64,000 bases of DNA. Source: Escherichia coli (GTDB lineage: Bacteria > Pseudomonadota > Gammaproteobacteria > Enterobacterales > Enterobacteriaceae). The stretch lies in assembly GCF_003334815.1 (NCBI RefSeq), contig NZ_QOWO01000014.1; one strand, 5' to 3'. The notes under the pieces are model-generated. The model was not told where the DNA came from and ran no database searches. It worked only from the letters and a program-made list of their open reading frames with translations. Made by a program: the position numbers and the translations under genes. Below are positions 1-58,700 of this stretch, one piece after another (the first letter of the stretch is position 1; every line of letters begins with the position of its first letter).

Positions 1-221
1 CTTTTCAAAAGGGTATTTTGGCTTTGACATATTAGGGGCTATTCCATTTCATCGTCCAACAAAATGGGTGCAGTACAGGTTGATAGAAATATCGCCTGGG
101 GCTTTTGTCCATCTGGAACCTCGCGAATGCTTAACGCCAGACAGCCTCAAGCACCCGACGCCATTCTATACCTGATAATTCTTCCAGCGGCGTTCACGTT
201 TAAAATCAGGAATACTGCTCG

Positions 222-7618: not shown

Positions 7619-8479
7619 TTATTGGCAATCTGCGTGAATGTTTGTCACCAGTGCCTCCAGCACCACTTTCCAGTCATCAACCACGCCAACATCTGCCTGT
7701 GAAAATACCGCAGCGCTGGCGTCATGATTAATCGCCACCACAAACTTGCTATTGCGTACGCCCGCCATTAACGCTGCTGCGCCAGAAGCGCCAACAACAA
7801 TACACACCTCAGGTGCCAGCAGATGTCCGGAAATACCAATCACTTTTTCAGCATCAACGCCACCGTTCATCACTCGCGCCCGACTGTAGCCCACTTCGGC
7901 TCCCAGCTTTTCTGCCAGCATAGCGATTTCCTGGTTATCTGCCTCTCCGCCCTGCCCCACCACCAGCACCCGTCTGGCCTCAGCTAATGGGTCGCGGGTA
8001 ACATTTTTCAGATCCTCTGTGCTAACCAGCCAGTCCGGAAGCGCACCCGGGACAATGTTCAGTTGTTGCATTCCAGAGGGCAACGTGGCGTTTTTCGCTG
8101 CTCCCGCCTGACGCGCCAGGGAAAGGCATAGCGGGCGTTTTTCTGTTTGCAGCGTCGCCGTTAGCGCATTTCCCCAGTGGGATTTGCGCACGCTTACGGT
8201 TGGAATATCTAACGAAGTCACCTGGCAGATGCTTGCACCATGTAAACGCCAGGCCAGCCGGGTCGACAGTTCATCGCCAAACGTTCCCGGCGGAAAGAGA
8301 ACAACGTCCGCAGGCGTTCGCTGCCACTGTTCCACCAACGCATCCAGCACCTGTTCCGCCACTACAGGCTGAGGTTCAATCTGCCAGTGCGCCAGGGTAC
8401 AACCGCTGAAATCCTGCGCCGCCAGCCAGCTTGCTATTGCGGCATTCTCCTGATTTATTGTCACAATTGCGATATTCAT
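7619..8479 (-). CDS. ygcQ: Electron transfer flavoprotein alpha subunit (FixB-like), 286 aa
   Basis: ORF trimmed to ATG 8479 (MNIAIVTINQ...); 4-nt ATGA overlap with ygcR stop. Confidence 0.85.
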   Translation of the reverse strand: MNIAIVTINQENAAIASWLAAQDFSGCTLAHWQIEPQPVVAEQVLDALVEQWQRTPADVVLFPPGTFGDELSTRLAWRLHGASICQVTSLDIPTVSVRKSHWGNALTATLQTEKRPLCLSLARQAGAAKNATLPSGMQQLNIVPGALPDWLVSTEDLKNVTRDPLAEARRVLVVGQGGEADNQEIAMLAEKLGAEVGYSRARVMNGGVDAEKVIGISGHLLAPEVCIVVGASGAAALMAGVRNSKFVVAINHDASAAVFSQADVGVVDDWKVVLEALVTNIHADCQ

Positions 8480-27756: not shown

Positions 27757-30513
27757 ATGACCAACTACAGCCTGCGCGCACGCATGATGATTCTGATCCT
27801 GGCACCGACCGTCCTTATTGGTTTATTGCTGAGTATCTTTTTCGTCGTGCATCGCTATAACGACTTGCAGCGTCAACTGGAAGATGCCGGTGCCAGCATT
27901 ATTGAGCCGCTTGCAGTTTCTACTGAATATGGCATGAGCCTGCAAAATCGCGAATCTATCGGTCAGTTAATAAGCGTACTGCATCGTCGCCATTCCGATA
28001 TTGTTCGCGCGATTTCGGTTTATGATGAAAATAACCGACTCTTTGTCACCTCCAATTTTCATCTTGATCCCTCATCAATGCAGCTCGGCAGCAACGTGCC
28101 GTTTCCTCGCCAGCTCACTGTCACTCGTGACGGCGATATTATGATCCTCCGCACGCCGATTATTTCTGAGAGTTACTCCCCCGACGAATCGCCCAGTAGC
28201 GATGCCAAAAATAGTCAAAATATGTTGGGATATATTGCGCTGGAGCTGGATCTTAAATCGGTTCGCTTGCAGCAATATAAAGAGATCTTTATTTCCAGCG
28301 TGATGATGCTGTTTTGTATCGGTATTGCGCTTATTTTTGGCTGGCGCTTAATGCGCGATGTAACCGGTCCGATTCGCAACATGGTGAATACCGTCGACCG
28401 CATCCGTCGCGGGCAACTCGACAGCCGGGTGGAAGGATTTATGCTCGGCGAGCTGGATATGCTGAAAAACGGTATCAACTCGATGGCAATGTCGCTGGCT
28501 GCTTATCACGAAGAGATGCAGCACAATATCGACCAGGCGACGTCCGATCTGCGTGAAACGCTGGAGCAGATGGAAATTCAGAACGTTGAGTTAGATCTGG
28601 CGAAAAAGCGCGCCCAGGAAGCGGCGCGTATTAAATCCGAGTTTCTGGCAAATATGTCACACGAGCTGCGTACACCACTGAATGGTGTTATTGGCTTTAC
28701 CCGCCTGACGCTGAAAACAGAATTAACACCAACGCAGCGCGATCACCTGAATACGATTGAACGTTCGGCAAATAATTTGCTGGCAATTATTAATGATGTT
28801 CTCGACTTCTCGAAACTGGAAGCAGGTAAGCTGATTCTGGAAAGTATTCCATTCCCACTACGCAGCACGCTGGATGAAGTCGTTACTCTGCTGGCACATT
28901 CTTCTCACGATAAAGGGTTAGAACTGACGCTCAATATTAAAAGCGACGTGCCTGATAACGTGATCGGCGACCCGCTGCGATTACAGCAAATCATCACTAA
29001 CCTGGTGGGGAATGCAATTAAATTCACCGAGAATGGCAACATTGATATTCTGGTAGAAAAACGTGCGCTGAGTAATACCAAAGTGCAGATTGAAGTGCAG
29101 ATTCGGGATACCGGCATTGGTATTCCTGAACGCGATCAATCGCGCTTATTCCAGGCCTTCCGACAGGCTGATGCCAGTATTTCCCGCCGTCATGGTGGCA
29201 CCGGGCTGGGGCTGGTGATTACACAAAAACTGGTTAATGAAATGGGCGGCGATATTTCGTTCCATAGCCAGCCGAATCGCGGTTCAACTTTCTGGTTCCA
29301 CATTAATCTCGATCTGAACCCGAACATTATTATCGAAGGGCCATCCACCCAGTGCCTCGCAGGTAAGCGCCTGGCCTATGTCGAACCAAACTCCGCAGCA
29401 GCGCAATGCACGCTGGATATTTTAAGTGAAACGCCGCTGGAAGTGGTTTATAGCCCAACGTTCTCCGCGCTGCCTCCCGCGCATTACGACATGATGTTGT
29501 TAGGCATCGCGGTGACCTTCCGCGAGCCGCTAACAATGCAACATGAGCGATTAGCGAAAGCGGTATCGATGACCGATTTCCTGATGCTGGCACTTCCTTG
29601 CCATGCACAAGTCAATGCTGAAAAACTCAAGCAAGATGGTATCGGCGCGTGTCTGCTGAAACCATTAACACCTACACGCCTGTTGCCTGCCCTGACGGAA
29701 TTTTGTCATCACAAACAAAACACGCTTTTGCCTGTAACCGATGAAAGTAAGCTGGCAATGACAGTCATGGCGGTTGATGACAACCCCGCTAACCTGAAAC
29801 TTATCGGCGCATTGCTGGAAGATATGGTGCAACATGTGGAACTTTGCGATAGCGGGCATCAGGCGGTTGAACGGGCGAAACAGATGCCGTTCGATTTGAT
29901 CTTAATGGATATTCAAATGCCGGACATGGATGGCATTCGGGCCTGCGAACTCATCCACCAACTCCCGCATCAGCAACAAACGCCGGTTATCGCGGTAACG
30001 GCGCATGCAATGGCCGGGCAAAAAGAGAAGCTGCTTGGCGCAGGGATGAGCGATTATCTGGCGAAACCGATTGAAGAAGAGCGATTGCATAATTTGTTGT
30101 TGCGCTACAAGCCTGGCAGCGGTATTTCCTCTCGCGTCGTGACGCCCGAAGTCAACGAAATTGTGGTGAACCCGAATGCGACCCTCGACTGGCAACTGGC
30201 ACTACGCCAGGCAGCAGGAAAAACCGATTTAGCGCGCGATATGCTGCAAATGTTACTCGATTTCCTGCCTGAAGTTCGCAACAAAGTTGAGGAACAGCTG
30301 GTTGGAGAAAACCCGGAAGGCCTGGTTGATTTGATTCATAAACTGCATGGCAGTTGCGGCTATAGCGGTGTGCCACGTATGAAGAATCTCTGCCAACTGA
30401 TCGAACAACAGCTACGTAGCGGTACTAAAGAAGAAGATTTGGAACCGGAGCTGCTGGAACTGTTGGACGAGATGGATAATGTCGCGCGCGAAGCCAGCAA
30501 AATTCTCGGGTAA
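27757..30513 (+). CDS. barA: Hybrid sensor histidine kinase BarA, 918 aa
   Basis: H-box HELRTPLN, receiver domain ([14 protein letters not shown]), C-terminal HPt ([11 protein letters not shown]), N-terminal TM segments. Confidence 0.97.
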
Positions 30514-35701: not shown

Positions 35702-36484
35702 TTAGGAACTTATCTCTCCATCCTGACCCGATGGCGCACTGAACTCAACCCTTTCATTTTCAGGAAGCAGACCGCGCCAGCCAAATTGTGATAACGCCTG
35801 CATCCAGGTGTCGTCCAGGCCCGCGTGAATAGTCAGCGGCTCGCCAGTAAAAGGATGCGTCAATGACAACTGACTGGCATGTAGCATTAACCGCTGGAGG
35901 CCAAAATGCTCAGCACCGCTGCGATTCTGGCGTAAATCGCCATGTTTGCTATCGCCAATAATCGGATGACGCAAATGGGCAAGATGTCGGCGAAGCTGAT
36001 GTTTGCGTCCGGTTTTCGGCTCCAGTTCCACCAGGCCGTAGCGCGTGGTCGGGTAACGTCCGGTCGCTACCGGCATTTCTACGGTCGCCAGACCGCGATA
36101 ATGCGTCACTGCTGGCTGCGGGCCTTTATCTTCGCGGGCAAATTTATCAGCGATTTTGTCCAGTTCTTCCACCAGTGGATAATCCAGCACCGCTTCTTCC
36201 ATCAACCAGCCGCGCACAATCGCATGGTAACGTTTCTGGATTTGGTGCTGTTCAAACTGTTGTGCCAGCAGCCGTCCGGCCTCGCTGGATAATCCCATCA
36301 ACAACACACCAGAAGTGGGTCGGTCCAGACGATGAGCAGTAAAAACATGCTGGCCTATCTGGTCACGCACGGTTTGCATGACCACTACTTTCTCGTCGCG
36401 ATCCAGCCAGCTGCGGTGAACCAGCCAGCCGGAGGGTTTATTTACCGCAACCAGCCATTCATCCTGATAGAGTATTTCCAGCAT
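35702..36484 (-). CDS. truC: tRNA pseudouridine(65) synthase, 260 aa
   Basis: RluA-family catalytic motif [12 protein letters not shown]. Confidence 0.93.
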
Positions 36485-36813
36485 TAGCTCGCATCATCCG
36501 CAAAAAGAGCATCCAGTTTTTCCAGCTCAGCCAGAATAAGCGCGCGTTGCGGATGGTCCGTCGCCAGCGCCATTTCATAATAGGGTGCAACGGCAAAAGC
36601 GCCCGGTAACGGCTGTTTGTTATCTAACAAATCGTGCATTCGCGGGATCAGCACCCACTGCAACCACTCCAGTGGTTCCATGGTGTCCATAAAGAACGGT
36701 TGGGTACTATTAAATTGATGCGGCTGGGGTTCATCGTTTCGCCAGTGCTGATGTTCACGCAGTAACGCTTCAAGCGCCTGCAACTGGAGACGAACGCGGT
36801 CATGAGTGGTCAT
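36484..36813 (-). CDS. yqcC: DUF446-family protein, 109 aa
   Basis: Full-length ORF; stop overlaps truC start by 1 nt. Confidence 0.85.
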   Translation of the reverse strand: MTTHDRVRLQLQALEALLREHQHWRNDEPQPHQFNSTQPFFMDTMEPLEWLQWVLIPRMHDLLDNKQPLPGAFAVAPYYEMALATDHPQRALILAELEKLDALFADDAS

Positions 36814-36858
36814 AAAGCAACCTCAATAAGAAAAACTGCCGCGAAGGATAGCAGGAAT

Positions 36859-37223
36859 AAAAAAAGGGAGCACTGTATTCACAGCGCTCCCGGTTCGTTT
36901 CGCAGCATTCCAGCTACTTTTGTTGCTCCCTGCTCATCCTTGACAACTTTTCCTCTGGCCTTGCGGCCAATCGTTCATCCTGAACTATTGCTTCCTGCTC
37001 ACACCACCCCGATGTGATACTTCATCCTGAAGTGTCCCTGGCCTTCCTGACCCACCGAATCATCCTGACCGGTTCTCATTCTCCATCCTGGAGGTGTCCT
37101 TTAACGCGTCCTGCGTCATCCTCTTCGCTTCATCCAGAAGCCTTTCCCTGAAACACCATCCTGGTGTGTCCTGCAGAAGTGTCATCATCCTGATGTTCAC
37201 TTCGTTGTCTGACTCCCTGTCGA
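36859..37223 (-). ncRNA. csrB: CsrB small RNA (CsrA-sequestering)
   Basis: About 20 GGA motifs on the minus strand, many as CAGGAUG/AGGAUG; 5' end GUCGACAGGGAGUCAGACAACG; 3' hairpin GGGAGCGCUGUGAAUACAGUGCUCCC plus U7. Confidence 0.85.
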
Positions 37224-37397
37224 CGAAGATAGAATCGTCTTTTTCGCGAAGTCTTACAAGGCGCTTACAGACAATGCCTTAAGGAAAATTTCATATGAAA
37301 GTTAAGAATTAACAATCAACATTTTGATTTTAAATGAAAATAACGATTCTTATCTTTTTAAGTATTCGCTTATTTCCTGGCGATCTCCTACAGAGTC

Positions 37398-37415
37398 TGT
37401 AAGAGATCTCTCACA
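37398..37415. promoter_or_regulatory. UvrY (BarA/UvrY response regulator) binding palindrome upstream of csrB
   Basis: Perfect 18-bp palindrome TGTAAGAGATCTCTCACA about 175 bp upstream of the csrB 5' end. Confidence 0.6.
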
Positions 37416-37434
37416 ACCAGATGGGGTATTTGGA

Positions 37435-37980
37435 TTACAGAAGAGGCTTAAGTTGATTAAGGAATTCCGCAAGATTTGAGGCTAAATGCGTCCGTTTACG
37501 TGTTCCCAGCGTCTCTTTGCACACTTCACCGGAGAGATTACACACCGAGATGACCTCTAACTCTTCTTCCAGCGTCGCGATAAATAGTGTGGGCGGCAGT
37601 TTTAGCCTTTTCTGAGTCACCAGATGACCAATCAGATTTTCCTGCACCCGACGGAAGTCGTCTTCACTCCAGGTTTGCAGCAATGTCAGTTTGATATCGC
37701 CAAACTGCGCGTGCATATCCCCGGCAAACTGAGTCGTATAAAAGGTATGAATTGTGGGTTGTATCACAATATCAAAAGCGCGTTCAACCGCGTTTACATT
37801 TTGTTCCCCGGTAAACGGCTGGGGTTGCCAGTATACGGCATCTTCGGTAGTTGAAATAATGCACGGTGAAGGAACACCGTACAGTTCCTCACTTAACGGC
37901 CAGCTTTTATGCTCTTCATGCCACGCATCGCAGTAGCGTGCAGTAAAATCTTTCAGGGCTTGTGCGGTCAAATCGTCCAC
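37435..37980 (-). CDS. syd: SecY-interacting protein Syd, 181 aa
   Basis: Full-length [23 protein letters not shown]...; apparent GTG start. Confidence 0.9.
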
Positions 37981-38047
37981 TAATTTCTCTCTTCACTTAA
38001 ACCAGATACACTTGTCGTTTAGTTTATCTGGTTTATGACGGTGAAAC

Positions 38048-55395: not shown

Positions 55396-55601
55396 ACTTC
55401 CTGAGCCGGAACGAAAAGTTTTATCGGAATGCGTGTTCTGGTGAACTTTTGGCTTACGGTTGTGATGTTGTGTTGTTGTGTTTGCAATTGGTCTGCGATT
55501 CAGACCATGGTAGCAAAGCTACCTTTTTTCACTTCCTGTACATTTACCCTGTCTGTCCATAGTGATTAATGTAGCACCGCCTAATTGCGGTGCTTTTTTT
55601 T
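55396..55601 (+). ncRNA. gcvB: GcvB small RNA
   Basis: Divergent from gcvA; TATAGT -10 box at 55385-55390; 5' ACTTCCTGAGCCGGAACG; GU-rich segment GTTGTGATGTTGTGTTGTTGTGTTTG; 3' terminator GCACCGCCTAATTGCGGTGC plus T9; 206 nt. Confidence 0.85.
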
Positions 55602-58572: not shown

Positions 58573-58700
58573 TCCCTCACCCTAAACGCATAAATGCCTG
58601 ATGCGCTACGCTTATCAGGCCTACATAACTCCTGCAATATTTTGGATTTGCATGATTTGTAGGCCGGATAAGGCGTTCACGCCGCATCCGGCATGAACAA
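58573..58700. repeat. BIME/REP cluster between tcdA and mltA, flanked by a short direct repeat
   Basis: GCCTGATGCGCTACGCTTATCAGGCCTAC and TGTAGGCCGGATAAGGCGTTCACGCCGCATCCGGCA units; GAGGTTAYCCCTCACCCT occurs at about 58566 and 58728. Confidence 0.55.

Follow-up and report, generated by a model that had tools for sequence, protein, structure and literature searches.

In Gammaproteobacteria, carbon metabolism, biofilm formation, motility and virulence are under global post-transcriptional control by CsrA. Its main antagonist is the small RNA CsrB, which relieves CsrA control over glycogen synthesis, the formation of biofilms, motility and central carbon metabolism. Similar arrangements are found in Vibrio (CsrB, CsrC and CsrD) and in Pseudomonas (RsmY, RsmZ and RsmX), where a GacS/GacA-type two-component system likewise acts through an upstream palindrome to drive GGA-rich decoy RNAs. 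The Pseudomonas GacA box is TGTAAGN6CTTACA, and the Pseudomonas Rsm RNAs are much shorter than E. coli CsrB. The Csr RNAs of Vibrio and Shewanella are too diverged from the E. coli RNA to align well, scoring 77-87 bits or lying below the Rfam threshold in the sampled loci, while Vibrio also differs in having three Csr RNA loci in single genomes. E. coli contains a further RNA of this kind, CsrC (b4457), a CsrA-sequestering sRNA with GGA motifs, which resembles CsrB in its activation by BarA-UvrY via an upstream repeat at a similar distance and in the same two ChIP-exo crosslinking sites (PMC4682653). Unlike CsrB, it is 246 nt long, lies in the yihA-yihI locus and has a -35 region without TGTAAG, and its repeat, TGTGAGACATTGCCGATA, is less symmetric; csrC also has neither an IHF site nor IHF dependence (PMC4682653).

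The yqcC-syd intergenic region of the present window (the whole 64,000-nt stretch of E. coli DNA that was analysed) almost certainly holds E. coli csrB, complete with all of its known control region. The gene and its two flanks are located as follows:

36484..36813, minus strand: yqcC, the flank downstream of csrB
36856..37224, minus strand: csrB, a 369-nt non-coding RNA sequestering CsrA (RF00018 match, NC_000913.3 annotation and GGA hairpins)
37435..37980, minus strand: syd, flanking csrB on the upstream side, with 20 bp between its stop codon and the inverted repeat described below

The initial annotation, made from the sequence alone, had read CsrB from the minus strand of this intergenic region and proposed a covariance-model search as a check. 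The Rfam scan of the whole window returned RF00018 (CsrB) at 36856..37215 on the minus strand with 380.4 bits (E 1.2e-110), the gathering threshold being 71 bits, and the match covers the whole model (positions 1-356 of 356), thus representing a full-length, non-truncated member of the family. The reading is borne out by NC_000913.3 as well, where the ncRNA csrB (b4408) is annotated at the equivalent of window positions 36856..37224. The 1.6-kb region 36400-38000 shares 100% identity with K-12 MG1655 and was found in 5,426 of 5,426 complete E. coli genomes. E. coli K-12 CsrB (b4408) has the same sequence, the same length of 369 nt, 22 GGA motifs, the terminator and the UvrY site at -183/-182; no difference exists at the locus, and only the surrounding window differs from MG1655. 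The csrB locus and its control elements are therefore already known and show no departure from published knowledge, and nothing new follows from finding csrB in an E. coli window; the case does illustrate that a known sRNA and its activator site are recognisable from the raw sequence alone. The transcript, the binding of CsrA and of UvrY, and the dependence on IHF rest on published work with the same sequence, where the results for the csrB transcript, for CsrA binding and for UvrY binding at the repeat are all positive.

The csrB strand contains 22 GGA motifs in 369 nt, for which about 20 had been given in the initial annotation, and the plus strand contains two; the minus-strand background is 5.0 +/- 2.5 GGA per 373 nt, with a maximum of 13 elsewhere in the window. 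The motifs are located at RNA positions 9, 35, 54, 64, 78, 90, 104, 114, 126, 137, 141, 160, 178, 188, 198, 230, 245, 272, 286, 296, 314 and 335, and the sequence agrees with the published 369-nt CsrB, in which 22 GGA sites have been numbered (PMC5027483). The repeated CAGGAUG contexts ascribed to the motifs stand in part: six of the 22 GGA lie in exact CAGGAUG copies, far above the dinucleotide shuffles (mean 0.11, maximum 2), but most are found in variants, with CAGGA present in 10 and GGAUG in nine of the motifs, so that CAGGAUG is a consensus context and not a literal repeat. Binding of multiple CsrA dimers and antagonism of CsrA in vivo have been published for the identical E. coli sequence (PMC5027483), and one CsrB molecule is described as binding many CsrA dimers and titrating CsrA off mRNAs (PMC7652899). 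Following the literature on this sequence, each GGA hairpin would mimic a CsrA target site.

The minimum free energy (MFE) of csrB is -120.7 kcal/mol, compared with -100.1 +/- 5.4 kcal/mol for shuffled sequences (z = -3.85). Counting GGA-containing stem-loops by folding, which had been suggested as a further check, gave 11 by the Rfam structure, and by MFE nine GGA in loops. The Rfam consensus structure mapped on the window comprises 12 hairpins, 11 of them with a loop GGA and the twelfth being the terminator; the loop count of 11 depends on this consensus structure, which was tested by covariation, and not on MFE. The single-sequence MFE fold places nine GGA strictly inside hairpin loops, an undercount that arises because a long-range helix is formed. 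A mean unpaired probability of 0.8 or more was computed for 15 of the 22 GGA, and only two are buried in stems, one at position 141 and the other at position 335 in the terminator. As modelled, about half of the GGA motifs are in the loops of conserved short hairpins, and most of the others are in single-stranded linkers.

Covariation was assessed in 39 enterobacterial CsrB sequences, an alignment from which the tested structure was not derived. In this alignment 96.2% of cells are paired, compared with 35-49% when the partners are slid by 1-3 columns, and double changes occur in 24 of 54 pairs versus 9.7 +/- 1.9 in shuffles; the observed value was reached by none of 500 shuffles on any of five measures. 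By itself, RNAalifold recovered the same hairpins from this alignment, with 29 of 72 pairs compensatory. Compensatory changes across the 39 species thus strongly back the predicted stems of the GGA hairpins.

At its 3' end, csrB contains an intrinsic terminator preceded by a segment implicated in decay:

36856..36891, minus strand: intrinsic terminator with stem GGGAGCGCTGT/ACAGTGCTCCC, GAAT loop and U-tract (terminator scan)
36892..36902, minus strand: GAAACGAACC, the unstructured segment between the last free GGA and the terminator (mapped from PMC5027483)

The terminator named in the initial annotation was recovered by the terminator scan as an 11-bp stem (36891..36866) with seven G-C pairs, followed by TTTTTTT. 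This stem is present in both the MFE and the centroid folds and is conserved with compensatory changes among the 39 CsrB sequences; GGA number 22 is buried in it, in line with the published placement of CsrB GGA site 22 in the terminator stem (PMC5027483). An RNase E 'necessary cleavage site' (A327, A331) has been located between GGA site 21 and the terminator (PMC5027483), where A327 corresponds to window position 36898 and A331 to 36894. The segment GAAACGAACC is unpaired in all folds and nearly invariant in the 39 species, with A326, C328, G329, A330, A331 and C333 being invariant. CsrA on GGA sites 20 and 21, i.e. RNA positions 296 and 314, shields the cleavage segment, and CsrD overrides this protection (PMC5027483). 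Decay of CsrB begins with an RNase E cut in this segment, just before the terminator (PMC5027483).

The control region upstream of csrB contains the following elements, with positions given relative to the annotated +1 at 37224:

37398..37415: near-palindrome, TGTGAGAGATCTCTTACA on the csrB strand, the UvrY-P binding site (upstream activating sequence), centred at -183/-182
37384..37392, minus strand: extra UvrY-like half-site TGTAGGAGA, at -168..-160, 5 bp downstream of the inverted repeat
37317..37329, minus strand: IHF consensus match AATCAAAATGTTG (pattern WATCAANNNNTTR), at -105..-93, between the UvrY site and the promoter
37231..37259, minus strand: putative weak sigma-70 promoter, TTGTAA (-35..-30), 17-bp spacer and GATTCT (-12..-7), proposed from sequence and conservation

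The 18-mer at 37398..37415, which reads TGTAAGAGATCTCTCACA on the plus strand, spans -191..-174 and has no second copy in the window when up to 3 mismatches are tolerated (chance expectation 0.02). Its near edge at -174 fits the distance of about 175 bp stated in the initial annotation. Its assignment there as the UvrY recognition element is also upheld, as sequence and position are identical to those of the footprinted site: Zere et al. (2015) described the same sequence as 'nearly perfect', centred at -183/-182 and DNase I-footprinted by phosphorylated UvrY (PMC4682653). The claim of a perfect 18-bp palindrome has to be withdrawn, since only 16 of the 18 positions (eight of nine pairs) are self-complementary, one A/C pair being off, in keeping with the published wording. 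Compared with the idealised TGTAAGN6CTTACA, the 18-mer shows one difference, G for A at position 4. Its two-fold symmetry is therefore imperfect, and perfect symmetry is not required of the BarA-UvrY promoter family. Binding of UvrY-P and BarA-dependent activation are backed by ChIP-exo, ChIP-PCR and DNase I footprinting; the csrB repeat is the strongest UvrY ChIP-exo target in the genome, and UvrY binding at csrB is ~35-fold lower in a barA mutant (PMC4682653). In the published mechanism, csrB transcription requires phosphorylation of UvrY by BarA, and UvrY-P binds the 18-bp repeat at -183/-182.

The IHF pattern WATCAANNNNTTR alone is weakly specific, with eight matches in the window versus 2.6 expected. 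In an alignment of 39 Enterobacterales csrB promoters, the TCA...TTA core of the match is conserved, where C114, A115 and T122 are invariant. The match lies where a putative csrB IHF site has been placed, between the two crosslinking regions; UvrY binding is optimal and csrB expression full only with IHF, and ihf mutants show a ~10-fold loss of CsrB (PMC4682653). IHF at about -100 may bend the DNA so that the distant UvrY reaches the promoter or RNA polymerase.

The csrB promoter itself is probably TTGTAA-17 bp-GATTCT. Near +1, conservation in the promoter alignment is highest in TTGTAAGAC and GATTCTAT; the further conserved blocks, none of them selected for, are CTTGTAAGAC at -36..-27, GATTCTAT at -12..-5, the extra half-site and the IHF core. 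A sigma-70 promoter scan of 36700..37500 (threshold 9/12) found nothing, because the putative promoter matches seven of the 12 consensus positions; so weak a match is in keeping with an activator-dependent promoter. Over the csrB -10 and +1, the plus strand carries a terminator-like hairpin, GACGAAGATAGAATCGTC plus T5, at 37222..37239, which was rejected as a real terminator since its arms are not conserved in the promoter alignment, and which is probably due to chance.

The extra half-site TGTAGGAGA, which has been noted at csrB before (PMC4682653), is kept as TGTnnGAnAT in 39 of 39 Enterobacterales promoters, and the form (T)GTRRGA is conserved in loci of Vibrio, Shewanella and Photobacterium; in Vibrio this third half-site begins 4-5 bp beyond the repeat. 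Near the csrB promoter, TGTAAG is present twice on the minus strand, at -45 and -34, 11 bp apart (37251..37270), and the second copy overlaps the -35 element within the conserved block CTTGTAAGAC (37251..37260). This second copy might be a low-affinity contact of UvrY-P, delivered from -183 by the IHF bend. A direct contact of this kind, if true, would explain the promoter-proximal ChIP-exo crosslink at -56..+25, which contains both TGTAAG copies, where an in vitro footprint and the repeat are both absent and which has been ascribed to an RNA polymerase-mediated contact (PMC4682653). The -35 TGTAAG is conserved within Enterobacteriaceae in the promoter alignment; at the equivalent position it is absent in the Erwiniaceae, Vibrio, Photobacterium and Shewanella loci examined, and it is also absent from the -35 region of the E. 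coli csrC promoter. Its absence from distant Csr RNA promoters and from csrC mostly closes the case for a conserved second UvrY contact at -35. Such a contact at CTTGTAAGAC is accordingly improbable, and TGTAAG at this position is, from the pattern of conservation, most likely just the -35 element.

An exact scan with the 18-mer over the genomes of 100,044 species gave at least 120 stretches, those listed belonging to Enterobacterales, Vibrionaceae, Shewanella and a few other Gammaproteobacteria. Of the 121 occurrences among the matches listed, 114 are flanked on one side, 100-600 nt away, by 500 nt with 15 or more GGA, and the opposite side of these has 0-11 GGA. A CsrB match at the Rfam gathering score was obtained for 11 of 15 sampled loci. 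For 39 of the 41 strongest enterobacterial matches, the repeat edge is 172-177 bp from the extrapolated +1, and in most of them the distance is exactly 174 bp. Genomes of Vibrio, Photobacterium and Shewanella have the exact E. coli 18-mer ahead of multiple GGA-rich RNAs, with ~160-177 bp between it and the first cluster of GGA (160-177 bp in most Vibrio and Shewanella loci listed). As the loci were retrieved by the exact 18-mer, its invariance across them is by construction, and independent evidence comes only from its linkage to Csr RNAs and its spacing from them.

The repeat lies directly downstream of syd on the same strand, 20 bp after the stop codon, and as RNA could form a ~7-bp stem with a GAUC loop, which would suit an RNA hairpin acting mainly to end syd transcription instead of a protein-binding DNA site. 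This possibility is quite unlikely, however, as the repeat has no U-tract after it and the terminator scan is silent there, UvrY-P leaves a footprint on it in vitro (PMC4682653), and in Vibrio and Shewanella the 18-mer occurs at Csr RNA copies without a syd match in the fetched locus. The same 18-mer is moreover fixed ~174 bp from Csr RNA genes, which are in the opposite orientation to it in 38 of 114 oriented loci among the matches listed; occurrence in either orientation is expected of a symmetric protein-binding site and not of an RNA element.

The exact 18-mer occurs three times per genome in Vibrio breoganii (L007-L009), V. fortis (L055-L057) and V. profundi (L062-L064), each time beside a GGA-rich stretch, and these copies presumably represent Vibrio CsrB, CsrC and CsrD. 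Six loci of Photobacterium and Enterovibrio (L022, L059, L071, L082, L085 and L098) contain a pair of CsrB-like segments separated by roughly 700-1,100 nt; where one member of a pair is at the usual distance from the 18-mer, the other is not. These paired segments suggest local duplications of Csr sRNA genes. In V. breoganii chromosome 1, a group II intron (RF00029, RF02012) is found at 7925..8687 of L007 on the minus strand, ~3.6 kb from the CsrB-like RNA.

The kinase gene of the same regulatory system is also encoded in the window:

27757..30513, plus strand: barA, the sensor kinase phosphorylating UvrY (NC_000913.3 annotation; 918 aa, no internal stop)

The distance from barA is 6,343 bp to the 3' end of csrB and 6,711 bp to its +1, for which the 7 kb of the initial annotation is a fair rounding; the gud operon, yqcA, truC and yqcC lie in between. 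The order syd-csrB-yqcC-truC is conserved across Enterobacterales, and one of the Csr RNA copies of Vibrionaceae and Shewanella still has yqcC-truC or syd-queF beside it. That barA and csrB are only 6.3 kb apart might be taken as functionally meaningful, for example as a co-localisation of kinase gene and target gene, and barA is indeed found 1.7-4.5 kb from csrB in all three of the fetched loci that extend far enough (E. albertii L047, Enterobacter sp. Ag1 L012 and L089). This is nevertheless very unlikely, since BarA acts on the UvrY protein and not on DNA, with uvrY lying outside the window, and since the intervening genes (gud operon, yqcA, truC and yqcC) are unrelated ones that differ from species to species. 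Conserved order among close relatives is expected without any function, and most fetched loci are too short to show linkage. A functional meaning of the barA-csrB proximity is unsupported.

There is next to no likelihood that the paralogue CsrC, or a different member of the CsrB/RsmB clan, is encoded here instead of CsrB proper: CsrC does share the mode of action and an upstream UvrY site (PMC4682653), and CsrB-like families are grouped in Rfam clan CL00106, but CsrB is the best-scoring model within this clan, matching end to end with 380 bits, E. coli csrC is located elsewhere (yihA-yihI, 4051036..4051281, 246 nt) with the different, weaker repeat TGTGAGACATTGCCGATA, the syd-csrB-yqcC synteny agrees with csrB, and the CsrC reading is refuted by position and sequence identity to b4408.

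The 621-bp gap between yqcC and syd contains short mechanical ORFs only, of which the following, 45-71 aa in length, lie over csrB:

36802..37017, plus strand: mechanical ORF
37014..37151, plus strand: mechanical ORF
37060..37200, minus strand: mechanical ORF, in the sense of csrB
37094..37282, plus strand: mechanical ORF

That these ORFs of 45-71 aa encode small proteins, with the GGA repeats a side effect of codon content, is just as negligible a possibility, although they are present on both strands and the stop-poor GGA-rich sequence leaves open stretches of 43-122 aa in every relative: for the sense-strand ORF (37060..37200), 20 of 38 relatives have a homologous segment whose difference in length is not divisible by 3, and the segment is stop-free in only 17 of 39 sequences, conservation tracks the RNA stems with compensatory changes, and the reference genome annotates an ncRNA where PGAP has no CDS. 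The frame-conservation test covered this sense-strand ORF, one of the four overlapping ORFs, and its lack of a conserved frame agrees with the initial annotation, which had regarded the short ORFs over the RNA as spurious. To judge from their sequence, the ORFs over csrB appear to be artefacts of the stop-poor, GGA-rich stretch. ORF callers thus place artefactual ORFs over csrB, and the PGAP-annotated E. coli records inspected leave the gene unannotated, with no feature at csrB ('none' in every record listed).

Natural disruptions of csrB are rare in E. coli, the contiguous gene and promoter being missing in 23 of 5,426 genomes. In E. coli MARGA_3 (L125, NZ_CM170101.1; 3001..4883), csrB is interrupted after about nt 94 by an IS3-family transposase. 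Among the 5,429 places in E. coli records that match the csrB region, one is on a plasmid and not on the chromosome.

The window as a whole shares 99.87% identity with MG1655, with 78 mismatches and 2 gaps over 60 kb. The possibility that the window is MG1655 itself was rejected on account of this identity, the two indels and a tRNA-fMet array that is 220 bp shorter. A single tRNA-fMet is present at 60086..60162 on the plus strand, compared with three in MG1655 (metZ-metW-metV), which leaves the window 220 bp shorter; the collapsed array is uncommon, as places covering at least 80% of 59900-60400 were found in 226 of 5,426 complete E. coli genomes. A sok antitoxin match (RF01794, 75.8 bits) lies at 1..156 on the minus strand, whereas sokX of NC_000913.3 is on the plus strand at the equivalent of 53..111, so that the strands disagree. 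ES036/CssrF is matched at 58617..58659 on the minus strand with 46.5 bits, in the tcdA-mltA gap, and is unannotated in NC_000913.3. GcvB, which is annotated in MG1655, is found at 55396..55601 on the plus strand with 199 bits.
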